The notes: generated by a model not told the origin, from the letters alone. Shown: positions 1,762 to 38,390, counted from the stretch's first letter. The stretch is 38,496 bases of DNA from Acidobacteriota bacterium (GCA_021814355.1 JAKAIJ010000002.1:1-38496), one strand, 5' to 3'. Numbers and translations are program-made.

Positions 1762-2795
1762 GCGGGCGCCTGGCAGGCTGTTGAAAATCCCTTATGGGTC
1801 GCGTTGCCCAGCGCCGCGGGCGCAAGTGCAAGGCGGCGCGACGCCGGCGATGTCTTCAGCGCATCGTCTAGGAGCGCCAACGCAGCAGATACGCCCGCGC
1901 CGCGGCAACCCTTCGGGCGCGAGGGATTGAGGGCCGTCTGCTTTGTTCCGGCTCGTCGCCAGGGGGTATCCACCCTGCCTTCCTCGCCGCGCCTCGCATC
2001 CGGCCCCCAAGCACCTCGCGCGCGGCCCACAAGGGGTTTCTCAACCGCCTGCTTGAGCTGCTCCAGGCGGCTCTTGACGCGGGCGGCGAGGGGGTCGTCG
2101 TCGCCCACCTTGCCCTTCCACGCGGCCTCGGCGGCGGTGTAGGCCTCCTTGGCCTTGGCGTCGTTGCCGGCGCGGTCGTAGTATTCGCCGAGGAGGAGCT
2201 GGGCCGCGCCCTCGGGCAGCAGGCCGCTCTTCGCCCCCGCGAGCTTCTTCCAGCTCTCCTCGGCCTTCTCGGGCCGCCTCTTCGCCTCGTAGAGCCGGGC
2301 CTGGAGCATCAGGGCCAGGGGGCCGGCGACCGGGTCCGCCGTCACGGGGGCAACTTGGGCGAGAGCCTCGTCGAGCTTGCCGGCGCGGGCGCTGGCCATG
2401 GCCCGGTAGAGGGCCACCTGCGGGGCCGCGGCCCCCGCGTCCTTGGCGGCCTCGTCGAGCCGCTTGGAGACCTCCTGGGCGCGGGCGGCCTCGCTGTCGT
2501 AGAAAACCCCGCCCTGGCGCTTGAAGCTTTCCCGGGAGGGGTCGTCCTTCGCGAGCACCGGGGCGTCGAAGGCCTCCGCCACCCGCGAGAGGCGGAACGA
2601 GGCCTCGTCGCGGCGCGCCTGGACCCGGTCGAGAAGGTACTTACCCCCCACGAACGCCGCGAGGCAGAGGACCAAGCCGGCGAGGTAAAGCCTCCAGTGG
2701 CGCTCCACCCCCCCTTCCACGTCCCGGTAGGCCGTGGAGAGTAGGTCGCGGAAGGCGTCGTGGCGCATGTCCTGTTTGGTGAGCCTCTTGGTCAT
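1758..2795 (-). CDS. membrane-anchored TPR-like protein (YfgM-like topology); the last ~97 codons are read through repeat copy B
   Basis: 345-aa ORF with a short cytoplasmic N-terminus, one TM helix (WRLYLAGLVLCLAAFVGGKYLL) and an Ala/Lys/Glu-rich helical repeat region. The C-terminal tail from about KQAVEKPL onward is low-complexity Arg/Ala/Gly sequence encoded by element B (1773-2052). Its stop overlaps the regulator ATG (ATGA at 1758-1761). Confidence 0.55.
1773..2052 (-). repeat. hairpin-closed non-coding element, copy B (280 nt; sense orientation inferred as minus)
   Basis: Arms 1773-1793 and 2031-2052 are inverted repeats homologous to the arms at 22175-22196 and 22710-22730. The interior aligns block by block, as reverse complement, with 22200-22227 plus 22500-22697. 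Example: ...gctcctagacgatg.gc.gaagacatcgccggcgtcgcgccgccttgca... Confidence 0.7.
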
Positions 2796-13687: not shown

Positions 13688-16600
13688 TCAGGCCCCGCGG
13701 CGCGGTTTTCCGGGGCGGGCGGCCACGGGCCGTCCGCCCCGCCGCTTTGCGGGCGGCCGCCGCACGGCGCCGCCTCGGGCGCTTTTTCCGCCCCTTCGCG
13801 GCCCGGCGTCGGCGGGCTGTCCTACCAGGAGGGCGCGGAGTTCGGGAAACGCCATGACCCGGCGCCACACCTCCTCTGGGCTGTGGGCGCGGCAATCATA
13901 GAGGTGCCAGAGGGCGCGCCGCCGCACTCCCCGGGCCCGGGAGCGGGCGCCCGAGGCGAGGGCCTTGGCGTAGAGCAGCCCGTAGAGGCGGAGCCCCCAG
14001 GGTCCGCCGGGCGACCGTCGCAGCAGCAGCTCGATCTCCCGGTTGGAGACGGAGGCGCCCGAGGAAGCCCGGAGGAAAGCCATGTGGACCTTCAGGTCGT
14101 GCGCCGTCCTCTCCACGGGGGCGGGAAGGAGAGGCCGACCGGACCCCGACCGCCGCCACCGGATCAGCGAGGCGTCCAGGTCCTGCGCCGCGGCGCCGTG
14201 ATCCACGCCCAGGATCAGGAAGAGGCCGGAGGGGAGATTGTGGCGCCGCCCCGCCGCCGCCAGGGGGTCCAATCCCCCCCAGGAGACGATCTCCTCGCGG
14301 ATGCCCCGAGCGTAGCCGAGCGCATCCCACGCCTTGAGGCACTCGTAGGTCACGAAGGCGGCCAGCCTCTCCTGGCCCAGGCGCCGGAACCGCTCCAGGG
14401 CGCTCCCCCGGTGGGCGAGGGCAGCCGCGTAGTGGTTCCGCTGGAGGGCGGCGTTCATGAGCGCCTCTTCGGCGAGCCCGGCCCAGTAATCCTCCCGCGA
14501 GGCCAGCGCCTCTTCCCTCAGCGCGTGGGCCGCCTCCTCCGCCTCGGCCAGCCGCCCGAGCGCCAGCCGCACGAGACAGAGGCTCGAGAGCGTCTGCTGG
14601 CGGCGGCTTCGGAGCGCCAGGGCCTCGGTCATCGCCAGGGTGCGCCGGCCCACGCGCATGGCGCCCGCGTAGTCGTTCTGTTCATAGAGGAGGGCGAGGA
14701 GGTTGACCCCCGCGGTGGCGGCGTGGCCCAGCAGCCCCGCCCTTCCGGCGCGCCGATACGCCTCCTTGAAGCGGGCCCGGGCCGCCTCCGTCTGGCCTCG
14801 GTGCCAGGCGATGTTCCCCAGGTTGACCAGGGCCATGACCCTGAAGATGGCCTGACCCGGTCCGGGAGGCAGCGCGAGCCCCTTCTCCAGGGAGGCCTGC
14901 GCCTCGTCCAATCGCCCCGTCGGTCCGTAGACTCCGCCCACGAGGTTGACGTAGGTCTTCCCCATGCCCACCAGATCGTTGCAGGCCCGGTAGTCCTCGA
15001 GGGAGGTAAGCAGGTGGCGTTCCGCCTCGTCCCACGCCTGGCGCTGCCAGCACCCCTGGGCCTCGAAGTAGCGCAGCCGCCCCCGGTGGGAGCCCGAGAG
15101 TTCCCCCTGCCGTTCCCGGAGGCGCTCCAGGAGCCCCGCGGCCTCCTCGGCCTTTCCCAGCGCGCCGAGGGTGTCCATCAGGGAGAAGGCGTCGTCCACG
15201 TCCTCGGCCCCGGGCGCCAGGTCGCGGCAGACGTAACGCAGGTGCTTGTAGGCCGCGGCGTTGTCGAACCGCCGGAGGGCGTCGCGCCCGGCGAGGCGGT
15301 GGTAGTGCCGGGCGCGCGCCGTCTCGCCGGCGAGCTCCGCGTGGTGGGCCAGCGGCGGCCAGAGACGGGGTTGGGCGGCCCCTCCGCCGCCCTCCAGGAA
15401 CTGGAGGACGCGCCGGTGGGTCTCCCGCTTGAGGCCGAAGGGGGCGGCGTCGTAAACGGCGCCCTGGAGCAGCGTGTCGGCGAAGGCTACGTAGGGTCGC
15501 GCCCCCCGCGTGTCGTCCCGCAGCAGGCCCGCCCCGTGCAGGGCCTCGAGGGCAGAGGAGAACTCCTGGGCCGGCAGATCGGAGACCTGCTGCAGGAGGT
15601 TCAGCGACACCGAGGCGCCCAGCGCGGAGGCGCTCTGGAGCAGCGCGCGGGGGGCGGGCGCCAGGGCGTCCAGGCGCCGGAGGTAGAGGGCTTCGAGGGT
15701 GTCCGGAAAGGTGGCGCGGGAGAGCCGGTCCTCGTCCACGGTGGGTCTTCCGCCGGGGCCCGGCGCCACGAGCCCCTCCCGCCGCAGAGTCTCGAAGAGG
15801 GCGCCGGCCACCCCGGGGTTGCCGTGGGCCCGCTCCTGGAACCAGGCGAGGACCGCGGCGGAGGGGCGGCCGAGGCCGTGGGCCTCCACCAGGAGGTCGG
15901 CCAGCGTCTCGGGGGGGAGCGGCGCGAGCGGGAGCGGCGCGGTGAAGGACTCCAGGGGGGCTAGGGTCTCCGAATCCGGCCGAGTGAAGAACGCGACCCG
16001 CCAGGGGAGGGGACGGGGTTCGCAAAGGAGCGTGGCGAGCAGGTCGAGCGACGGGGCGTCGGCCCACTGGAGGCCGTCGAGCAGCAGGACGCGCTCGCCG
16101 CCGCGCTCGAGAAGGCGGCCGAAGAGGGCGGCGGTGAGATCGCGCCGCTCCTTCGGCGAGAGGCCTGCCAGGGCCTCGGACTCCTCCTCTGGGAGGTCGA
16201 GAAGCGGGTTCATGAGACACCGGAAGCCGGCGGGCTCCTGAGCCAGCGCCGTCTCGCGGGCCTCGGCCAGCACCTCGGGAGGGTCGTGGCGGGTGACGCC
16301 CGCCAGGGCCAGGGCCACGGGCTTCAGGGCGGCGTAGGGCTGATCCCCGTGGTAGGGTGCCAAGCGGACCAGAGTGACCGCGATCTCGCGCTGGCGAGCC
16401 TCCGCCTGGAGGCGGTCGGCGAGGGCCGACTTCCCTGCGCCCGGGTCGCCCGTCACTAGGGGTGGTCTTCCCTCGCGCTCGAAGAGGGTGCGCCGGAGGA
16501 GCCGGACCTCCTTCTCGCGTCCCACCAGGGGACGAAGGGCGTCGGTCTCGCCCCCGCGACGCTCGCCCTCGGGAGAGAAGACGGCCACCGGGTCCCGCTT

Positions 16601-17815
16601 TCCCTTCACCCGGATGGGATCGAGGGCGCGGAAGCGCAGGGTTTCGGCGGCCCCCTCCGCCACCGTCCGGGAGACGAGGGCCCCCCCCGGCGCGGCGGCG
16701 GCCATGAGCCGGGCCGCCAGGTTGATCCCGTCCCCCATGACGGTGAACTCGCGTCGTCCAGGGGCGCCCACGGGACCCGAGAAGAGCGGCGCGGAGGTGA
16801 CGCCCGCCTTCAGGGTGAGCCCCACGAGGACCCGCGCGTCGCGCAGGAGGTCGAGCACGAACCGGACGGCCATCTCCTCCTTCGACTCGCAGGCGTAGGG
16901 TGCCCCAAAGAGGACGATCCCCTTGGTCCCCTTGTCGCCCATGTCGAGCTTGTTGAGCGTCCCACCGTAGCGCCGGGCGCCCGAGGCGAGGAGCCGGTAG
17001 AGCGACTCGACCCGGTCGGGAGCCGCAGGGTCGTCCCACGAGAGCCCCGCCGCCGAGACGAAAACCACAGCGGTGCCGCGGTGCTCGCCGAGGGTCCCCG
17101 CGCCCGCCCGCTCGGCCAGGTGGGCGGGCACCAGCCGCGCCAGGGCCTCGGCCCCGGGGTGGGCTGGCTGGCGCGGCCCCCCCGGCGGGGCAGGCGCCTT
17201 CGTCAGCCGCGCGAATCCCTCCCCACGCGGGGAGGAGACGCATGCGCGGGCCAACCGGAGGAAGCTCGGGTGGGCGACGGCCATGCCGGGCTCCGCGTGG
17301 TGCTCGGCTTCGGCGGCCTGGTCGAGGGGGGGGCCCGCGGCGTAGTAGTCCCAGCCCAGGGCGGGGTCCCCCGGGACGCCGAGAAGGACGTCGCCCGAGG
17401 CGGCGCCGATCTTCATCGAGAGGTCGAAGCGCCCCGCCGCCGTCTCCATGCCCTTGAACTCGGACATGGCCTCCAGCATGGCGAGGCCCGCGGCGGCGGC
17501 CCGGGGTTCCGCCGCCTCCCCCGGGAAGAGCACGGTCATGGCGTCGCCGCCGAAGCGCAGCACGTCGCCGCCGCTGCGGTCCACGAGGAGAATCATCCGG
17601 GTGAAGTAGGCGTTGAGGATTCGGGTCAGCTCCTCTGCGCCTTCGCGGCCAAGGGAAGCGAGGGCCTCGGTGAGGGGGGTGAATCCCGCCACGTCGCAGA
17701 AGAGGACCGCGCCCCGGAGGGTCTTGCGGGCGGGCGCGCCGGCAAGAGCCGGGGCCACCAGGTCATAGACCGCCCTGGGGAGGAAGACGGACAGGTCGCC
17801 GGCCGGCCGGACCAT
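13688..17815 (-). CDS. tandem class III adenylate/guanylate cyclase domains fused to an AAA_16/STAND-like ATPase and a TPR array
   Basis: 1375-aa ORF. CHD 1 carries VLFCDVAGFT and FGGDAMTVLF, so the metal-binding Asp residues are present. CHD 2 is degenerate (VVFVSAAGLS, MGDKG, MGDGINLAARL). P-loop GDPGAGKSALA. Walker B-like RVLLLDGLQWAD. The long C-terminal region is rich in helical repeats (AYKHL, GKAEEA, YVNLGNIAW). Arg-rich tail. Confidence 0.85.
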   Translation of the reverse strand: MVRPAGDLSVFLPRAVYDLVAPALAGAPARKTLRGAVLFCDVAGFTPLTEALASLGREGAEELTRILNAYFTRMILLVDRSGGDVLRFGGDAMTVLFPGEAAEPRAAAAGLAMLEAMSEFKGMETAAGRFDLSMKIGAASGDVLLGVPGDPALGWDYYAAGPPLDQAAEAEHHAEPGMAVAHPSFLRLARACVSSPRGEGFARLTKAPAPPGGPRQPAHPGAEALARLVPAHLAERAGAGTLGEHRGTAVVFVSAAGLSWDDPAAPDRVESLYRLLASGARRYGGTLNKLDMGDKGTKGIVLFGAPYACESKEEMAVRFVLDLLRDARVLVGLTLKAGVTSAPLFSGPVGAPGRREFTVMGDGINLAARLMAAAAPGGALVSRTVAEGAAETLRFRALDPIRVKGKRDPVAVFSPEGERRGGETDALRPLVGREKEVRLLRRTLFEREGRPPLVTGDPGAGKSALADRLQAEARQREIAVTLVRLAPYHGDQPYAALKPVALALAGVTRHDPPEVLAEARETALAQEPAGFRCLMNPLLDLPEEESEALAGLSPKERRDLTAALFGRLLERGGERVLLLDGLQWADAPSLDLLATLLCEPRPLPWRVAFFTRPDSETLAPLESFTAPLPLAPLPPETLADLLVEAHGLGRPSAAVLAWFQERAHGNPGVAGALFETLRREGLVAPGPGGRPTVDEDRLSRATFPDTLEALYLRRLDALAPAPRALLQSASALGASVSLNLLQQVSDLPAQEFSSALEALHGAGLLRDDTRGARPYVAFADTLLQGAVYDAAPFGLKRETHRRVLQFLEGGGGAAQPRLWPPLAHHAELAGETARARHYHRLAGRDALRRFDNAAAYKHLRYVCRDLAPGAEDVDDAFSLMDTLGALGKAEEAAGLLERLRERQGELSGSHRGRLRYFEAQGCWQRQAWDEAERHLLTSLEDYRACNDLVGMGKTYVNLVGGVYGPTGRLDEAQASLEKGLALPPGPGQAIFRVMALVNLGNIAWHRGQTEAARARFKEAYRRAGRAGLLGHAATAGVNLLALLYEQNDYAGAMRVGRRTLAMTEALALRSRRQQTLSSLCLVRLALGRLAEAEEAAHALREEALASREDYWAGLAEEALMNAALQRNHYAAALAHRGSALERFRRLGQERLAAFVTYECLKAWDALGYARGIREEIVSWGGLDPLAAAGRRHNLPSGLFLILGVDHGAAAQDLDASLIRWRRSGSGRPLLPAPVERTAHDLKVHMAFLRASSGASVSNREIELLLRRSPGGPWGLRLYGLLYAKALASGARSRARGVRRRALWHLYDCRAHSPEEVWRRVMAFPELRALLVGQPADAGPRRGGKSARGGAVRRPPAKRRGGRPVAARPGKPRRGA
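13766..13787 (+). terminator. candidate intrinsic terminator for paralog 2, lying inside the 3' tail of the convergent cyclase ORF
   Basis: gcgcc (13767-13771), loop gcctcg, ggcgc (13778-13782), then TTTTT (13783-13787). It is preceded by a stronger 13-bp stem-loop at 13712-13740 (ggggcgggcggcc acg ggccgtccgcccc). Confidence 0.35.
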
Positions 17816-17824
17816 GCGCCCATT

Positions 17825-17884
17825 CTAGCAGGCGGCTGAGAAACTCGCACGCGGCCTACGGGAGTTTTTCAGCAGCCTGCTAGC
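17825..17884. repeat. 60-nt solo palindromic hairpin, identical to the arms of the element at 22175-22730
   Basis: ctagcaggcggctgagaaactc pairs with gagtttttcagcagcctgctag over 22 bp, with one G-A mismatch and one G-T pair. The loop is gcacgcggcctacgg. It lies between the prmC stop (17915) and the cyclase start (17815). Confidence 0.8.
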
Positions 17885-17914: not shown

Positions 17915-18757
17915 TCAGAGCTTTTGCCAGACGGCCACGCGCAGCCGGCCCGCGAGGTCCCTCACCCCGCGGAGCCAGCGCAGGCTGGGGGAGAGACGGC
18001 GCAGGGAGCGGGCCCTGCGCGCCTGCGCCACGCCCAGCTCGGCCACCAGGTGCCCGCCGGGCCGTAGCGCCTGTTCGGCCCACCGCCCCAGGTGCCGGTA
18101 CGGCCCGAGCGGGTCGCCGCTGGGGATCAGGAGCGCCGCCCGCGGCTCGTGGTCGCGGACCTCCGGAGGAAGGGAGGGCCACTCCTTCGCGGTGATGTAA
18201 GGCGGGTTGCTCACCAGGAGGTCCAGGCCCGCGAAGGGGCAGGGGCCCTCGAGATCCGCCCGGACGAGCCGGGCGCGGGCCGCGGCGGCGAGGTTGCGTC
18301 GGGCCCACGCGAGCGCCTCCCGCTCCCGCTCCGCGCCCCAGAGGACGGCCCCGGGGTGCTCCCGCGCCAGCGCCGCCAGGACGCACCCGGACCCCACGCC
18401 CACCTCCAGGACGCGGGGCGCGGGTTCCTCGCCGAGGCAGAGGAGCGACTGCTCTACCAGGTGCTCGGTCTCGGGACGGGGAATCAGGCAGCCCGGGCCG
18501 ACGCGGACGCGGAGGCCCCAGAACTCCTGGAAGCCCCGCAGGTGCTGGAGGGGCTCGCGCGCCTCGCGGCGGTGGAGGAGGGCCTCGAAGATGCCTCCCT
18601 CCCCGCGCGGGAGGGGGGCATCCCGGTGAGCCAGAACCCAAGCCTTGTCGCGGCCCAAGGCGTGGGCCAGCAGAAGCAGAGCGTCGTAGGCGGGATGCGG
18701 AATTCCGACGGCCTTCAGCCGCCGCGCCCCGGAACCGAGCGCGGTTCCTAGTGTCAT
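17915..18757 (-). CDS. prmC: release-factor glutamine N5-methyltransferase
   Basis: Frame of ORF 17915..18925. Start moved to ATG 18755-18757 (MTLGTALGSGARRLKAVGI), which overlaps the upstream stop as ATGA. SAM-binding motif VLEVGVGSGCV. Catalytic NPPY (LLVSNPPYI). Confidence 0.88.
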   Translation of the reverse strand: MTLGTALGSGARRLKAVGIPHPAYDALLLLAHALGRDKAWVLAHRDAPLPRGEGGIFEALLHRREAREPLQHLRGFQEFWGLRVRVGPGCLIPRPETEHLVEQSLLCLGEEPAPRVLEVGVGSGCVLAALAREHPGAVLWGAEREREALAWARRNLAAAARARLVRADLEGPCPFAGLDLLVSNPPYITAKEWPSLPPEVRDHEPRAALLIPSGDPLGPYRHLGRWAEQALRPGGHLVAELGVAQARRARSLRRLSPSLRWLRGVRDLAGRLRVAVWQKL

Positions 18758-19315: not shown

Positions 19316-20071
19316 ATGTACACCGACGTGCACTGCCACCTGCTCCCCGGCGTTGACGACGGCTGCCCCGACTGGGACGCCTCGAAGGCGTGCCTCGACC
19401 GTTGCCGGAGCGAGAAAGTCCGCGCGGTCCTCGTGACCCCCCACATCTGGCCCGACAAGTACCCAAACCGCCCGGCGGAGCTGCGCGAGCGGTTCGCCGC
19501 GTGGAGTTCGCGCGCCGCGGGACTGGGCCTTCAGCTCGCGCTCGGCGCGGAGGTCTACTACCACCACGGCCTGCCCGAGGACCTGGCCGCCGGGAAGCTG
19601 CTGACGCTGGGCGGGGGCCCCCACTTGCTGGTGGAGTTTCCCGTAACGCTCCAGCCGCGGGGGGTGGACGAGACCTTCTACCGGCTCCGCCTCGCGGGGG
19701 CGGAGCCCCTGCTGGCCCACCCGGAGCGCTACGTCTTCGCCCAGCGGGACCCCCGGCGGCTCGCGGCGCTGGCCGAGTCCGGAATCGCCTTCCAGGTGAC
19801 TACCCACTCTCTCGTGGGGACCTTCGGGCCCCAGGTCCAGCGCACCGCCTTCCAGATGCTCGAGAGGGGCTGGGTCGCCCTTGTCGCGTCGGACGCCCAC
19901 CGTCCCGACGCCCGCCCGCCCCTCTTCCGGGAGGCGGTGCGGGTCCTCGAGCGCCGCTACGGCCGGGCCGCCGCGCGCCGCCTCGCCGTGCAGAACCCGC
20001 GCCGGGTCTTCGAGGGGCTCCAGGTCCACCCCGTCCCCTGCGCGCTCCAGCGGCGGGGCCTCTTCGGCTGA
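19316..20071 (+). CDS. PHP-family protein-tyrosine phosphatase (CpsB/YwqE-like)
   Basis: Frame of ORF 19214..20071, start at ATG 19316. N-terminal MYTDVHCHLLPGVDDG matches the D-x-H-x-H...P-G-x-D-D-G signature of CpsB/YwqE phosphatases. Later motifs AHPERY and ASDAH. Confidence 0.8.
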   Translation: MYTDVHCHLLPGVDDGCPDWDASKACLDRCRSEKVRAVLVTPHIWPDKYPNRPAELRERFAAWSSRAAGLGLQLALGAEVYYHHGLPEDLAAGKLLTLGGGPHLLVEFPVTLQPRGVDETFYRLRLAGAEPLLAHPERYVFAQRDPRRLAALAESGIAFQVTTHSLVGTFGPQVQRTAFQMLERGWVALVASDAHRPDARPPLFREAVRVLERRYGRAAARRLAVQNPRRVFEGLQVHPVPCALQRRGLFG

Positions 20072-20075
20072 GCCG

Positions 20076-22178
20076 ATGGCCCTGCGCGAGCGCCTCCTGG
20101 CCCACCTGCGCGCCCTGCCCGCCGGGGAGCTCTCGACCCGCAGCCGCATCGCCGCGGAGTTGGGGCTCTCGCCGCGGGAGCGGCGGGGGCTCGCGCCGCT
20201 GCTCGTCCAGCTCGTCTCGGAGGGGCGGCTCCGATCGAACCGGGGGCGCTACGCCGCCGTCGCGGAACCCGCGGAGGTCTGCGGGACCTTCCACGCGGCC
20301 CGCGGGGCGTACGGTTTCGTCACCCCGGACGGAGCCCCCGACGGCTCCCGGGACGTCTTCATCCCCCCGCCGGCCACGGCCGGCGCCCTGGAGGGCGACC
20401 GCGTCCGGGTCCGCGTGGCCCCGCGTCTTCCGGGAGACAAAGGCCCCGAGGGGGAGGTGACCGCCCTGCTCGCCCGCTCCCGGCGCCCCGTGGCGGGACT
20501 GGTCCGGGGCGGCTTCCTCTATCCCTTCGGCGCCGTCCCGAATCCCATCGCCCTCCCCCGGGGCTCCGCCGGGGAGGGAGGGGTGGCGCTGGTGACCCTT
20601 TGTCCGGGCGAAGGGCCGCCCTTGGCTGAATCGGTGGAGGTCGTGGGTGCCTTCGAGGATCCCCGGACGCCGGTTCGGGTGGCCGAGGCGCGTTACGGCC
20701 TCACCCATGAGTTCCCCCCGGCGGTGGCGCGAGAGGCGGACGCCCTTCCCGAGGAGCCTCCGGCCGGCGACTTGGAGGGGCGGGCGGACCTACGGTTCCT
20801 GCCCGCGGTCACCGTGGACCCCGAGGACGCCAAGGACTTCGACGACGCCCTCTCCCTGCGGCGCGAGGGAGCGGGGTGGCGGCTCTGGGTCCACATCGCC
20901 GACGTCTCGCACTACGTGCGGCCCGGGTCGGCGATGGACGCGGAGGCGCTGCGCCGGGGGAACACCACCTACCTGCCGGGGGTCGCCTACCACATGCTGC
21001 CGTCCCGGCTCTCGGGCGGCCTCTGCTCGCTCGTCGAGGGGCGGGATCGGCTCACCTTCACCGCGGAGCTCGCGGTGGCTCCGGACGGCAGGGTCGCCGA
21101 AGCCCGGTTCCGTAAGGCCGTCATCCGGTCGCGCCGCCGCCTCACCTATGGCGAGGCCCAGGCGGCGCTGGACGGCGAAGGCTCCCTGGAGCCCGATCTA
21201 GCCGCGCTCGTGGGGGAGCTGGGGGCCCTGTCGGAGGTGCTCTCGGCGCGCCGAGCGGCCCGAGGCTCGCTGGACCTGGACCTTCCCGAGGCGGACCTCC
21301 GGTTCGGCCTCACGGGCCGGGTGGAGGAGGTGCTCCCCGCGGCGAGGCTCGCCTCCCACCGGCTCGTGGAGGAGTGCATGCTCCTTGCGAACACCGCCGT
21401 GGCCGAGGCGCTGGAGCGCGCCGGCGCCCCGTGCCTCTACCGCGTCCACGAGGCCCCGGACCCGCGGAAGCTGGAGGCCCTGCGTCCCCTGCTCAACGCG
21501 CTGGGGCTGGGCGAGGCGAGCCGGGGCGACCTGGCGGACCCCGCCATCCTCCGGGCGGTCCTGGAGAGGGCCCGGGGCCACCGGGCGGAGAAGCTGGTCT
21601 CCTACCTCGTCCTGCGGGGCATGATGCAGGCGCGCTACGCCGTGGCCAACGCCGGCCACTTCGGCCTTGCCCTCGCGACCTACGCCCACTTCACGAGTCC
21701 CATCCGCCGTTATCCCGACCTCCTGGTCCACCGCGCCCTCGCGGCGGCGCTGGGCCTTGGCCCCGCGCCGGAGGGGGACCTCGCCTTCGCCGCCGCGCAC
21801 TGCTCGAACGCCGAGCGAGCGGCGGACGCGGCCGAGCGAGAGGTCATGGTGTGGCACCAGATGGCTTTTCTCTCGGGCCGGCTGGGCGACACCTTCGACG
21901 CGCTCGTCCTGGGGTTCTCGCGCGCGGGGATCCGCGTGGAGCTGCTCGACCACCTCATCGAGGGGCTCTGCCCATTCCGGCTGGTGGAGGACGACCGCCT
22001 GCGGGTGGACCCCGACGGCCTGAGGGCGCGCGGCGTCTACTCGGGGGCGGTCCTGCGGGTGGGGGACCCGCTCGCCGTGAGGCTGGTCCGCGTGGACGCC
22101 ACCGCCCTGGAGGCCCAGTTCGTCCCGGAGGGGTGGCCGGGGCCCGTGCGCGGCCGGGGGGGCCGCCGAGGGCGCTAG
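20076..22178 (+). CDS. rnr: ribonuclease R (RNase II/VacB family 3'-5' exoribonuclease)
   Basis: Frame of ORF 19881..22178, start at ATG 20076 (MALRERLL), 4 nt after the upstream stop. RNB core (DPEDAKDFDDALS, WVHIADVSHYV, HFGLA...YAHFTSPIRRYPDLLVHR). S1-like C-terminus and a basic GRGGRRGR tail. The TAG stop lies inside the left arm of repeat A. Confidence 0.9.
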   Translation: MALRERLLAHLRALPAGELSTRSRIAAELGLSPRERRGLAPLLVQLVSEGRLRSNRGRYAAVAEPAEVCGTFHAARGAYGFVTPDGAPDGSRDVFIPPPATAGALEGDRVRVRVAPRLPGDKGPEGEVTALLARSRRPVAGLVRGGFLYPFGAVPNPIALPRGSAGEGGVALVTLCPGEGPPLAESVEVVGAFEDPRTPVRVAEARYGLTHEFPPAVAREADALPEEPPAGDLEGRADLRFLPAVTVDPEDAKDFDDALSLRREGAGWRLWVHIADVSHYVRPGSAMDAEALRRGNTTYLPGVAYHMLPSRLSGGLCSLVEGRDRLTFTAELAVAPDGRVAEARFRKAVIRSRRRLTYGEAQAALDGEGSLEPDLAALVGELGALSEVLSARRAARGSLDLDLPEADLRFGLTGRVEEVLPAARLASHRLVEECMLLANTAVAEALERAGAPCLYRVHEAPDPRKLEALRPLLNALGLGEASRGDLADPAILRAVLERARGHRAEKLVSYLVLRGMMQARYAVANAGHFGLALATYAHFTSPIRRYPDLLVHRALAAALGLGPAPEGDLAFAAAHCSNAERAADAAEREVMVWHQMAFLSGRLGDTFDALVLGFSRAGIRVELLDHLIEGLCPFRLVEDDRLRVDPDGLRARGVYSGAVLRVGDPLAVRLVRVDATALEAQFVPEGWPGPVRGRGGRRGR

Positions 22179-22730
22179 CAGGCGGCTGAGAAACTCGCAT
22201 GGGCCGCGCGCAAGAGGCTTGGGGGGAGGGGTCTGGCCCTCGGAGGATCTCTGGCGCGACGCCAGCGCCCTGGGATGCCACGCAAGGCGCGGGGAGGAGA
22301 CAGATGCAGGGGGCATCGGCGACGAACCGGAACGCGGCGGGGTGCCCAGGCCGCGGCGTCCCTTCGGGTTGCCCCGGAGCCGGGCGTCTTCCATGTCGGC
22401 CCTCGTCTGCGTGCCGTCCCGCACGCCTGCCTCGGGCCTTCGCGAATCTGCACCGATCCGGGGGGCAACGCGCCGGGAGCCCTCCGAGGGCCAGACCCCG
22501 GGATGCTAGGCACGGCGAGGAGGGCGATGCGGTGTCCCATCGTCAACGAGCCGCAACAACGCAGATGGCCCCCAATCCCTTGCGCCCGAATGGGTTGCCG
22601 CGGCACGGCCCCGTCTGCTATGTTGTCGCTCCTAGACGATGTGCGAAGACATCGCCGGCGTCGCGCCGCCTTGCATCCGGAGTCGTGGCGCTGGCAACGC
22701 GGCCTACGGGAGTTTTTCAGCAGCCTGCTA
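22175..22730 (+). repeat. composite hairpin-closed non-coding element, copy A (outer copy of about 284 nt with a nested 272-nt copy at 22228-22499)
   Basis: Arms 22175-22196 and 22710-22730 pair over about 21 bp. The ends are identical to the solo hairpin 17825-17884. A perfect 19-bp inverted repeat (22228-22246 and 22481-22499) bounds the nested part. Only Arg/Pro-rich artefactual ORFs are present. Confidence 0.8.
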
Positions 22731-22778
22731 ACCGCGTCCCCGCGGTATACTCGGACCACGCCCGGAGGGAAGAGCGCG

Positions 22779-24260
22779 ATGCGAATCCGGCCCGTAAAGA
22801 TTGACACCTACCGAGAAAACATCGTCTTTCTCCGCAAGGACTGCGACCTCTGCCGCGCGCAGGGGTTCGCGGCGCTCAGCAAGGTGGAGGTGGCCTCCAA
22901 CGGCCGGTCCCTCGTGGCCGTGCTCCACGTCACCGACGAGCCGTTCTTGGCCAAGGGGGAGGTAGGGCTCTGCGAGTACGCCTTCCAGCAGCTCGGGGTG
23001 CCCGCCGGGGCGGAGGCGCGGGTCCGCCACCTGGATCCCGTGCGCTCCGTGGACCTCGTCCGGAAGAAGCTCCACGGCGAGGTCCTAGACCAGGAGGCCT
23101 ACCGCCGCATCATCCGGGACATCGTGGAGAACCGCTACTCCAAGGTGGAGCTCACGGCCTTCGTCATCGGCTGCGCCCAGGGGTTCATGGACCGCGAGGA
23201 GATCTTCTACCTCTCCCGGGCCATGGTCGAGCAGGGCCAGCGCCTCGACTGGGGTCAGGAGATGGTGGTGGACAAGCACTGCATCGGGGGCATCCCGGGC
23301 AACCGCACCACCATGGTGGTGGTCCCCATCGTGGCGGCCTACGGGCTCACCATCCCCAAGACCTCCTCGCGCTCCATCACCTCCCCAGCGGGCACCGCCG
23401 ACACCATGGAGGTGCTCGCCAACGTGGACCTCACCCTCGAGGACCTGCGGCGGATCGTGAAGGCCGAGGGGGGCTGCCTCGCCTGGGGCGGCTCCTTCGC
23501 CCTGTCGCCCGCCGACGACATCATCATCGCCGTGGAACGGCCCCTCAACATTGACGCCGTGGGCCAGATGATCGCCTCCATCCTCTCGAAGAAGCAGGCC
23601 GCGGGCTCCACGCACGTCCTCATTGACATCCCCGTGGGACCGACGGCCAAGGTCACCACCATGGCCCACGCCACGGCGCTGAAGAAACTGTTCGAGTACG
23701 TGGGCGAGAAGATGGGGATGACCGTGGAGGTGGTGGCCACGGACGGCCGTCAGCCCGTGGGCCGGGGCATCGGGCCCGTGCTGGAGGTCCGCGACGTGAT
23801 GGCGGTCCTCTCCAACGCCCCCGACGCCCCGGCGGACCTGAGGGAGAAGTGCCTGGACCTCGCGGGGCGCATCCTGGACTTTGCCCCCGCCCTGCGGGGC
23901 GGTCACGGGCGGCGCATCGCCGAGCGTATCCTCCACTCGGGGGAGGCCTTCGAGAAGATGCGGCGCATCGTGGAGGCCCAGGGCGCGCGCGCGCCCAGGG
24001 AGCCCGGCCCCATCACCCGCGAGGCCCTGGCCTCCTCGACGGGGACCGTGCTGGCGATAGACAACCACGAGCTCGCGGCCTGCGCCAAGCTCGCCGGTGC
24101 CCCCGTGGACCAGGGGGCGGGACTCGATCTGCTCAAGAAGGTGGGGGATCGGGTGCTCTCCGGGGAGCCGCTCTTCCGCATCCACGCGGAGGAGACGGCG
24201 GACATGGGATTCGCGTGGGACTACTGGACGCGCCACCCCGAGATGGTGGAGATCGGGTAG
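22779..24260 (+). CDS. deoA: AMP phosphorylase-type thymidine phosphorylase family protein
   Basis: Frame of ORF 22275..24260, ATG 22779 preceded by GGAGGGA. The roughly 85-aa N-terminal extension (MRIRPVKIDTYRENIVFLRKD...) is typical of the archaeal-type subfamily. Core motifs VDKHCIGGIPGNRTT and KTSSRSITSPAGTADTME. The neighbouring R15P isomerase and RuBisCO genes support the call. Confidence 0.78.
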   Translation: MRIRPVKIDTYRENIVFLRKDCDLCRAQGFAALSKVEVASNGRSLVAVLHVTDEPFLAKGEVGLCEYAFQQLGVPAGAEARVRHLDPVRSVDLVRKKLHGEVLDQEAYRRIIRDIVENRYSKVELTAFVIGCAQGFMDREEIFYLSRAMVEQGQRLDWGQEMVVDKHCIGGIPGNRTTMVVVPIVAAYGLTIPKTSSRSITSPAGTADTMEVLANVDLTLEDLRRIVKAEGGCLAWGGSFALSPADDIIIAVERPLNIDAVGQMIASILSKKQAAGSTHVLIDIPVGPTAKVTTMAHATALKKLFEYVGEKMGMTVEVVATDGRQPVGRGIGPVLEVRDVMAVLSNAPDAPADLREKCLDLAGRILDFAPALRGGHGRRIAERILHSGEAFEKMRRIVEAQGARAPREPGPITREALASSTGTVLAIDNHELAACAKLAGAPVDQGAGLDLLKKVGDRVLSGEPLFRIHAEETADMGFAWDYWTRHPEMVEIG

Positions 24261-36513: not shown

Positions 36514-37469
36514 GCCCCGGCGCGGGCCGCCGGGTCCTCGACGCCGAGGTGCGAGCTCTCGAGCGGCTCCGCGACAGCCTCGGAGACGCCTTCCGCGGCG
36601 CGGTGGACCGCATGGCCTCGTGCGAAGGGCGCGTGGTGGTCACGGGGATGGGCAAGAGCGGGCTCGTGGGCCACAAGATTTCGGCCACCCTCGCGAGCAC
36701 CGGCACGCCTTCCTTCTTCCTCCACCCCGCCGAGGCGTTCCACGGGGACCTTGGGATGGTGAAGCCCGTGGACGTGGTGCTCGCCCTCTCCAACAGCGGC
36801 GAGACCGAGGAGCTCGTGCGCCTCGTGCCCCTGCTCAAGCGGCTGGGGGCCTTCGTCGTGGCCGCCACCGCCTCCGAGAAGAGCACCCTGGCCACGCTGG
36901 CGGACCTCCACGTGGGCGTCCCGGTGGACGAGGAGGGATGCCCCCTCAACCTCGCCCCCATGGCCTCCACCACGGCCCAGTTGGCGCTGGGCGACGCGCT
37001 GGCCGCGGAGCTCATGGAACGACGGAACTTCAAGCAGGAGGACTTCGCCCTCTTCCACCCGGGCGGCAAGCTGGGCAAGCGATTCATGCGGGTCCGCGAC
37101 CTCATGCACGCGGGCGGGGCGGTACCCCTCGTCCTTCCGTCCACCCCCATGCGCGAGGTGATCTTCGAGATCTCGGCCAAGAAGCTGGGGCTCGCGGTGG
37201 TGGCCGAGGCGGACGGCCGGGTGGTCGGAATCGTCACCGACGGCGACATGCGGCGCCTGCTCGAGAAGCACGGGGGCGCGCTCCTCGAGATGCGTGCCGG
37301 CGAGTGCGCCCACCCCGACCCGAAGACCATCTCCGGCGAGGCCCTGGCCGCCGAGGCGCTCCGCATCCTGGAGGAGTGCAAGATCACCTCCCTGCTCGTC
37401 CTCGACGGCTCCCGCCGTGTCCAGGGCGTCCTCCACCTCCACGACCTCTGGCGCCTCCAGCTGATCTGA
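36510..37469 (+). CDS. kdsD: arabinose-5-phosphate isomerase (SIS domain plus tandem CBS)
   Basis: GTG 36510 overlaps the kdsA TGA (GTGA), with GGGAGG upstream. Motifs [41 protein letters not shown] and NSGETEE. CBS-like C-terminus ([16 protein letters not shown]). Confidence 0.9.
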
Positions 37470-37573
37470 CCGCAGTTTCCCGCGGGCCCGCTTCGGACCC
37501 CGCGGCGGCGCTCCGGGCGTGGCGCGGGGAGGGCGTTCGTGCTACCATCTCAACCCTGCACGGGAGCGCCGGG

Positions 37574-38122
37574 ATGGTGGAAGGACGGGCCCGCGGGACG
37601 ACGCCGGAGCTGGCCTCGCGCTTAAAGAGCCTGCGTCTCCTGGTCTTCGATGTGGACGGCACCCTGACCGACGGCGGGATCGTCCTGGACGGCGGCGACG
37701 GCGAGTGGAAGCGCTTCGACGTCCGGGACGGCGCGGGCATCAAGCTGGCCCAGGCCGCGGGCCTCGAGGTGGCGTTCCTTTCTGGGCGGTCCGCCCCGGC
37801 CACGGCGCGGCGCGCCCGCGAGCTGGGCGTCGCCCGGGTGGCGCAGGGGGCGTGCCAGAAGGGCGAGGCCTTCGCGGCCCTGCTCGCCGGGGCCGGGGTG
37901 GCGGCGGAAGAGGCGGCCTACATGGGCGACGATCTCCTGGACCTGCCCGCCCTGAGGCGCGCCGGCGCGGCGGCGTGTCCCGCCGACGCCCACCCGGCGG
38001 TGCGCGCCGAAGTGGACTACGTCTGCACAGACCCCGGCGGACGCGGCGCCGCCCGGGAGTGGATTGATCTGGTCCTGACGGCCCAGGGCAAAATGGACGG
38101 CCTGCTAAGGGCCTATCCGTAA
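37574..38122 (+). CDS. kdsC: KDO 8-phosphate phosphatase (HAD IIIA)
   Basis: Frame of ORF 36620..38122, ATG 37574. Motifs LLVFDVDGTLTDG, DGAGIKL, SGRSAPATARRARELG and YMGDDLLDLP. The last six codons and the TAA stop (38120-38122) lie in the left arm of repeat C. Confidence 0.85.
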   Translation: MVEGRARGTTPELASRLKSLRLLVFDVDGTLTDGGIVLDGGDGEWKRFDVRDGAGIKLAQAAGLEVAFLSGRSAPATARRARELGVARVAQGACQKGEAFAALLAGAGVAAEEAAYMGDDLLDLPALRRAGAAACPADAHPAVRAEVDYVCTDPGGRGAAREWIDLVLTAQGKMDGLLRAYP

Positions 38123-38390
38123 AATAAGGCATGGTCGCGACGGAGGCCAGCCGCGATGGATGGCAAGGAAGCGAGCGAAGGGCGATGTCGGAGACCATCG
38201 GATGAGCGAGCTGACGCAGCCAGGCGCGCGGATGGCCCCGTCCCTCCGGGCGCGGGCGGCTCCCGTCGCATGGCTTTGTTGGCTTCCCTCGGCAGGCGGC
38301 AAGCCCAGAGCCTGCCTGCGGTCGGCCGCCTCGCCCTGCTCGGGAGGCGCCACGCGCGCGGCCGCGCCCTATTTACGGATAGGCCCTAAG
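38105..38390 (-). repeat. hairpin-closed non-coding element, copy C (286 nt; sense orientation inferred as minus)
   Basis: Arms 38105-38129 (ctaagggcctatccgtaaaataagg) and 38367-38390 (ccctatttacggataggccctaag) pair over about 22 bp. The interior shares ordered blocks with copy B on the same strand (atggtcgcg, ccagc.gcg, gcaagg, ggcgatgtc N6-7 catcg, acgcagc, ccct.cgggcgcg, gctttgtt, cgcgcgcggcc). Confidence 0.7.

Follow-up and report, generated by a model that had tools for sequence, protein, structure and literature searches.

Does the repeated element that follows rnr in this Acidobacteriota genome carry a second member of its own family, and by what route would one such element have come to lie inside another? 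The window, by which we mean the whole 38,496-nt stretch of DNA that was analysed (71.6% G+C), contains five elements in 38.5 kb: the rnr-proximal copy A, the insert that interrupts it, copies B and C, and a 53-bp copy. An earlier note, made from the sequence alone, had claimed that a second family member is nested in the rnr-proximal copy, and on this central point it was right: the insert is a complete second family member within copy A, with terminal repeats of its own and two modules. The best overall explanation, to which we assign a probability of roughly 0.85, combines a nested MITE-like element, a transposase acting in trans at TA, movement of the composite, and modules that are under selection.

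The features on which the argument depends are listed below. Two models supply the scores: R1, a covariance model of the hairpin module with 103 training sequences, the second-arm modules of the window lying outside the training set; and a profile HMM trained on 49 full-length elements, all taken from other genomes and none from the window. Loci elsewhere carry L numbers.

22176-22177: TA target duplication to the left of A, read from the sequence
22178-22227, minus strand: host element A, part 1 (3′ terminal repeat region in the host orientation), 92-94% identical to L026 and L058
22228-22499, plus strand (that of the better-kept module): nested 272-nt Y-type element, the insert, recognised as a clean block absent from other copies and by the profile HMM
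22228-22263: left terminal inverted repeat of the insert, its first 19 nt perfect, common to L102 and L116
22268-22351, plus strand: insert arm 1, hairpin module, R1 45.4 bits (in the R1 training set), also a pattern match
22360-22368, plus strand: central CCCTTCGGG mini-hairpin between the insert arms, read from the sequence
22376-22459, minus strand: insert arm 2, degenerate module, R1 21.1 bits, E=0.0014 (outside the training set)
22464-22499: right terminal inverted repeat of the insert, 36 nt, 81%
22491-22576, plus strand: A arm 2 module, R1 44.1 bits
22500-22728, minus strand: host element A, part 2 (arms 1 and 2 and a terminal repeat), 86-89% identical to L026, L058 and L059
22603-22688, minus strand: A arm 1 module, R1 71 bits
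22729-22730: TA target duplication to the right of A, read from the sequence
1773-2052, plus strand: copy B, an uninterrupted host-type element, profile HMM 123.6 bits
1814-1900, plus strand: first B module, R1 79.5 bits
1926-2011, minus strand: second B module, R1 46.8 bits
17828-17880: 53-bp termini-only derivative, in which 22 nt from the start of A are joined to 31 nt from its end (100% identical to A), with TA/TA within CTAG
38109-38386, plus strand: copy C, of a third subfamily, profile HMM 60.5 bits, with TAA/TAA at 38106-38108 and 38387-38389
38149-38234, plus strand: first C module, R1 43.8 bits
38259-38347, minus strand: second C module, R1 16.3 bits, E=0.026

The insert is a complete member of the element family

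A full element runs from a terminal inverted repeat through a top-strand module 1, a CCCTTCGGG-type hairpin and a bottom-strand module 2 to the opposite terminal inverted repeat. The terminal inverted repeats are ~30-36 bp long, and the modules, of ~85 nt, each lie ~55 nt from the nearest end. The central mini-hairpin is also found mid-element in B, in C and in Y-type elements of other genomes. The two strands adopt one and the same Y-shaped fold (z-scores of -4.2 to -6.3), and the elements are without coding capacity, their sequence being filled by covarying hairpins. Y-type elements measure 272-280 nt, single-module elements ~165 nt and the termini-only form 53 nt; across genomes there are two size classes, one of ~255-295 nt with two modules and one of ~165 nt in which a long hairpin bears a single module at its tip. 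The terminal repeats vary by subfamily (for example GAGCCTGTCCGCGAATAGG, GCAGGCTGYTGARAAA, GGGGNCTGNTGAAAAAG, GTGTCCTG... and GTGCTCCATCC...), while the module stays constant.

Membership of the insert was judged in three ways. The block pattern GCAAGG-N15-GATG-N6-10-CATCG-N11-14-ACRYRGC, which is partly circular in that it was composed after viewing B, the insert, A and C, matches exactly B(+), the insert(+), A(-) and C(+) in the window against a chance expectation of 0.00, and with this post hoc pattern the shared ordered blocks that had been read by eye were recovered in all four copies. With the profile HMM the insert obtained 37.7 bits (E=1.6e-11) on the minus strand and 32.4 bits (E=6.3e-10) on the plus strand, the corresponding scores of A, B and C being 132.5, 123.6 and 60.5 bits. 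Finally, R1 detects a module on each strand of B, A, the insert and C, for a total of eight in the window. The insert and B or C are ~60% identical whichever orientation is chosen, in agreement with the 55-60% estimated earlier by eye. Strict local alignment of the insert with B or C yielded z-scores of -1.3 to 5.4, barely above shuffles and ambiguous as to orientation; it is superseded by the pattern, covariance-model and profile-HMM tests.

Two descriptive claims of the earlier note need rewording. The opposite orientation of insert and host holds only by the better-kept module, which is on the plus strand in the insert (45.4 bits against 21.1 on the minus strand) and on the minus strand in the host (71 against 44.1); because every element has one module per strand and the same Y fold, orientation comes down to which arm is better preserved, and the profile HMM scores of the insert are nearly equal on the two strands. 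An element built in this way might present a module, and work alike, whichever way it had inserted. Likewise, the closing stem of the insert is indeed distinct from that of its host, but what had been called unrelated is the terminal inverted repeat of another subfamily, the one seen in L102 and L116.

The insert interrupts arm 2 of host copy A

The 272 nt are bounded, as had been claimed, by a perfect 19-bp inverted repeat, GGGGTCTGGCCCTCGGAGG at 22228-22246 and its reverse complement at 22481-22499, and the two arms remain 81% complementary when the repeat is followed to 36 nt; 500 shuffles of 22100-22800 that preserved dinucleotides gave no perfect inverted repeat longer than 14, the longest being 10 on average. 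The block is cleanly missing from copy B, again as claimed, and also from the host-type copies L026, L058, L059 and L027, and in uninterrupted host-type copies the junction sequence runs unbroken as GGGGGCC(A/G)GATGC. Host A without the insert (22178-22227 joined to 22500-22728, reverse strand) is 279 nt long, matches B (1773-2052) over the full length with 80% identity and is 86-94% identical to the elements of the four Acidobacteriota MAGs just named; its own terminal inverted repeat is 33 nt at 85%. The inner junctions in the window read GA and GG, and the reported lack of a target-site duplication there is correct.

The same nest occurs once more, in the Acidobacteriota MAG contig JBBIKI010000015.1 (L102, 1911-2233), where an element of the same host subfamily carries the insert at the same left junction, GGGGG-TA-GGGGTCTGG, with TA at the left insert junction only. 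The L102 composite is without ~200 nt, and its breakpoint fuses the insert module to the host arm-2 module, the two forming a direct repeat on the strand concerned; to judge from this breakpoint, L102 was shortened by recombination between the insert module and the host arm-2 module. Since neither rnr nor the thymidine-phosphorylase-like neighbour is present at L102, the locus is not orthologous to that in the window. Between the two loci the insert segment is 94% identical (3 differences in 52) and the host parts 82-86%, and the higher identity of the insert may be read as a marginal hint that the site was targeted repeatedly. Two histories would fit: transposition of the whole composite by means of its outer repeats, or repeated targeting of the host site by the insert subfamily. 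The nesting probably predates arrival beside rnr, and so did not happen at this locus, because A keeps an intact duplication at its outer ends whereas none flanks the insert and insert arm 2 is degenerate, and because the non-orthologous L102 holds this composite too, joined in the same way on the left.

Un-nested versions exist for both partners: the host in L026, L058, L059 and L027, and the insert in L116, the single further copy recovered when metagenomes were scanned with an insert 23-mer. L116 (~175-455 of metagenome contig Ga0124853_1006936) is a free-standing insert relative with the same left repeat, GGGGTC(C/T)GGCCC...GAGGATCTCTGGCGCGACGCCAGCGCC, and with modules of 47.1 and 45.3 bits. 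Its right terminal repeat is decayed, and it is located upstream of a gene starting at ~500. In a search for other nests, the larger spans seen in L004, L036, L070, L079 and L107 were spurious or truncated elements.

The alternative that survives best, although we regard it as improbable, is that the composite was formed by recombination of two elements, illegitimate or module-to-module, and not by transposition. Such an origin would be in keeping with the inner junctions of the window, which are without target duplication, and the L102 deletion demonstrates that module-to-module recombination takes place. However, the block ends exactly at the tips of the 36-nt inverted repeat and the host is colinear on both sides of it, module exchange would yield chimeric arms and not a complete element with its own termini, and a TA stands beside the left tip in L102. 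We therefore prefer transposition, by which a 272-nt non-autonomous MITE-like element would have entered an older member of its superfamily, in arm 2 and 5-6 nt outside the GCUAGG motif of that arm. The host and insert would then have moved as a composite unit on the outer repeats, and probably landed in this way on the TA of the rnr stop region.

Target duplications mark the family as transposon-like

Short direct repeats flank the elements of the window: TA/TA around A, TA/TA around the 53-bp copy and TAA/TAA around C; the flanks of B, TG/TT, are decayed. Across genomes, 46 of 79 non-redundant elements had TA no more than 4 nt away from each end, compared with 1.5 (maximum 5) for random placement in the same loci, the usual contexts being CTA-element-TAG and TTA or TAA on both sides. 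Terminal inverted repeats are present across these 79 elements. Being shorter than ~500 bp and non-coding, having terminal repeats and, at the level of the family, target duplications, and occurring in several copies at loci that are unrelated, the elements behave as a MITE would, i.e. as a miniature non-autonomous DNA transposon.

The earlier note took self-nesting as a hallmark of active mobility. Evidence of recent movement does exist, but it concerns the outer repeats, in the form of the TA/TA duplication and the 53-bp copy, and not the nesting. The termini-only copy is 100% identical to the termini of A, whereas B is only 80% identical to A, suggestive either of recent activity of the A lineage or of a recent insertion followed by internal deletion. 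Because the 53-bp copy has no modules, these may be dispensable for movement, unless the deletion occurred in place.

We give still less credence to the possibility that the copies are non-mobile paralogous genes for a structured ncRNA, with the inverted termini serving as its closing helix. In its favour, the hairpin covaries strongly and is asymmetric between strands, complementarity of the closing stems is kept although their sequence changes from copy to copy, and Kribbella has one exact-pattern match per genome among the matches listed. Against this, TA or TNA direct repeats flank the elements far above chance, copies lie at unrelated loci, overlapping stop codons and inside ORFs, the 53-bp termini-only copy has its own TA/TA at a new site, one element lies within another, and some MAGs hold at least nine loci. 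The least probable account of all, that the 272 nt are ancestral and copy B an internal-deletion variant, can point to A and B differing by exactly this block and to the internal deletions known in the family (L102 and the 53-bp copy), but it has almost nothing left to it when L026, L058, L059 and L027 show the same uninterrupted junction as B, when the block carries both modules and is framed by a perfect terminal inverted repeat of its own, when its relative stands alone in L116, and when ~50 Y-type elements across phyla are B-sized, at 255-295 nt, and not 551 nt; it is because the four MAG copies and B are all uninterrupted at the junction that the 272 nt are read as an insertion into A and not as a deletion in B.

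In the mobile-element reading that we favour, a transposase acting in trans would recognise the terminal repeats, insert at TA and duplicate TA or TNA. A search of the window and of ~0.9 Mb of related loci revealed neither a transposase nor an autonomous partner; terminal-repeat patterns in the related loci occurred solely as pairs around modules, and a scan for inverted repeats spaced 650-2600 bp apart returned only an unrelated IS in L014. IS1031-group elements make a 3-bp TNA duplication and have termini starting with GAG, and IS630 targets CTAG and duplicates TA. The insertion footprints of IS5 (IS427/IS1031) and IS630 are thus like the TA/TNA of the present family, a likeness that does not demonstrate parentage, and no transposase with matching termini was found. 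A 2-bp duplication is made by IS427-group members of the IS5 family (PMC3281130, Table 2). The terminus of IS5A of E. coli, GGAAGGTGCGAATAAG, the sole IS5-family terminus compared, bears a weak resemblance to GAGCCTGTCCGCGAATAGG. A DDE enzyme of the IS5 family (IS427/IS1031 group) or of the IS630 type would be a candidate mobiliser.

Two neighbouring insertions were noted at related loci. At L100 (2952-3015) a short module-less MITE with a terminal repeat of the Eubacterium type adjoins a module-bearing element, and the unrelated IS of L014 (2032-3378; 1347 bp, with 54-bp terminal repeats) abuts another.

Gene context in the window

At the left end of A, the TAG stop codon of rnr consists of the left TA duplication and the first G of the element (22176-22178), the encoded RNB domain protein spanning 19881-22178. 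The 53-bp derivative (17826-17882 with its flanks) lies 12 nt upstream of the start of a 1375-aa ORF on the minus strand (13688-17815). A HAD-like ORF (36620-38122) ends within the left terminal repeat of C, with its stop at 38120-38122, and a TPR_21 ORF on the minus strand (1758-2795) runs through the whole of copy B without a stop, the TPR_21 domain ending ~100 aa earlier. At 18113-18197, ARAGORN called an 85-nt tRNA-Thr(CGT), which, unlike the tRNA-Arg at 2826-2899, is without an Rfam tRNA match at the gathering threshold, and is probably a false positive inside coding sequence.

The hairpin module is under selection as a folded single strand

The module is laid out as a GC clamp, an AAGG/AACGCA internal loop, a covarying 5-bp helix, a G/A-rich symmetric internal loop and a GAUG...CAUC helix. 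In the 103-sequence alignment, paired cells amount to 86.8%, versus 64.9% in shuffles, and the covariation score is 0.501, versus 0.139 in shuffles (0 of 500 reach 0.501) and at most 0.147 in slid-partner controls. Double changes are seen in 15 of the 23 pairs, eight pairs being uninformative in that they are fixed by the search pattern, and the inner helix changes from GCCGC/GCGGC to AAAAUUU/AAAUUUU in Firmicutes. Among 52 sequences dereplicated at 85%, G·U outnumbers A·C by 60 to 29 (binomial p ~0.001, with sequences that are not fully independent), an excess that indicates that it is the sense strand that folds, as RNA or as ssDNA. The modules are under selection as single-stranded hairpins, RNA or ssDNA.

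What such a hairpin does may lie at the RNA level, in stabilising or insulating host transcripts, or at the DNA level, as a hairpin or cruciform that aids transposition, and we are undecided between the two. Single-module elements are sense to the neighbouring gene in four cases and antisense in five, without bias, and a simple role in read-through RNA is therefore not favoured. Conservation of the module across subfamilies with differing termini suggests a role for conserved host machinery, and our best guess, offered with low confidence, is that the module might act through such machinery independently of any particular transposase. Tentatively, and at less than even odds, the ~85-nt hairpin may be a functional module, of RNA or ssDNA, that has not been described before and that serves via host machinery as cargo or cis-factor on TA-targeting MITEs. 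If the hairpin were such a signal, it would represent a new widespread structured motif and open a way to learn how MITEs persist or remain harmless.

Searches of Rfam 15 returned only a tRNA for the whole window at gathering thresholds, noise only for 22150-22760 and 1740-2080 at E<=10, and nothing on the modules of eight diverse loci at E<=0.1. The module was also considered as a phage feature and rejected as such: a scan of viral contigs gave two matches, both in apparent coding regions and attributable to chance.

The module is spread across phyla

A pattern scan of one genome per species gave at least 113 loci, with several per MAG and at least nine in some; chance coding matches in Pseudomonas/Ectopseudomonas, Rhodobacterales and Sandaracinobacter were then removed. 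The module is present in at least seven phylum-level groups, among them Acidobacteriota, Planctomycetota, Gemmatimonadota, Alphaproteobacteria, Actinomycetota, Myxococcota (Myxococcales) and Firmicutes, and the family extends from Firmicutes of the gut to Acidobacteriota of soil. Carriers among the Acidobacteriota are many MAGs with several loci each; those among the Alphaproteobacteria are Rhizobium, Sinorhizobium, Bosea, Kaistia, Sphingomonas and Borborobacter; the Actinomycetota are represented by Kribbella and others, and the Firmicutes by Eubacterium and Lachnospiraceae. Cultivated carriers include Kribbella, Rhizobium sp. FY34 and Sphingomonas sp. AOB5.

The Kribbella loci (L002, L016, L020, L060, L061, L076, L081, L087, L094 and L098) and the related loci of Actinomycetota MAGs (L068 and L106) have a highly conserved core of ~90 nt, flanked by subterminal arms of 20-30 nt that differ between copies and are complementary within each. 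In transposase-binding repeats such variation of the arms would be unusual.

Relation to known elements

MITEs are normally lineage-specific and defined by their termini. The present family is the reverse of a typical MITE, with termini that vary and an internal ~85-nt covarying hairpin that is conserved across phyla: it is a MITE superfamily defined by this conserved, covarying, strand-specific hairpin on both strands, and not by its termini, and it is absent from Rfam 15. In the open-access literature we found no description of a cross-phylum MITE with a structured core. In other respects the elements are like the bacterial type II MITEs Chunjie, QMITE and ERIC and like bacterial MITEs at large (PMC10969869), in that they measure less than 500 bp, do not code for protein, lie in many copies and for the most part between genes, and have inverted repeats at their ends and short duplications of the target, with transcripts predicted to form long hairpins, size variants produced by internal deletion, and insertion into one another, which is documented for BOX, RUP and SPRITE (PMC10969869). 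Nesting itself is routine, and several subfamilies of one MITE superfamily are present in this genome. Bacterial MITEs are AT-rich, whereas the present family is GC-rich (66-75% GC). In a published survey, 98% of MITE clusters were genus-specific, with clustering at 95% identity, which is far tighter than in the comparison made here (bioRxiv 10.1101/2024.01.18.576219).

HEARO/omega RNA, Acido-Lenti-1 and group II intron domains share with the family a multicopy, mobile-element-linked occurrence and a conserved covarying structure, but the present elements differ from them in having no Rfam 15 match, no associated protein gene and the hallmarks of DNA transposons. The rhizobial elements RIME1 and RIME2 were considered as well; a plasmid search found the Sinorhizobium copy in 3 records, none of them in S. 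meliloti, and its rarity on plasmids, set against the abundance of RIME, speaks weakly against identity, so that the two are probably not the same.

The Correia elements of Neisseria (CREE/NEMIS), which are ~100-155 bp long, also have a TA duplication, inverted termini (~26 bp in Correia) and no known cognate transposase, and, like the present family, can sit near gene ends. They are confined to Neisseria, however, and are without the two-module Y architecture. The Correia hairpin transcript is reportedly bound or cut by RNase III (PMC2649163). The module was not detected in Correia elements, R1 giving no match at E<=1, with filters off, in three Correia-bearing loci, including L118 (2082-2236), a Neisseria-type Correia element in an IMG/VR contig. 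Compared by eye and over a short length, the Correia core GGCGTTGCCTCGCCTTGG resembles the reverse complement of the outer motif of the module, GCAAGGCG...CAACGC, with the inner helices missing.
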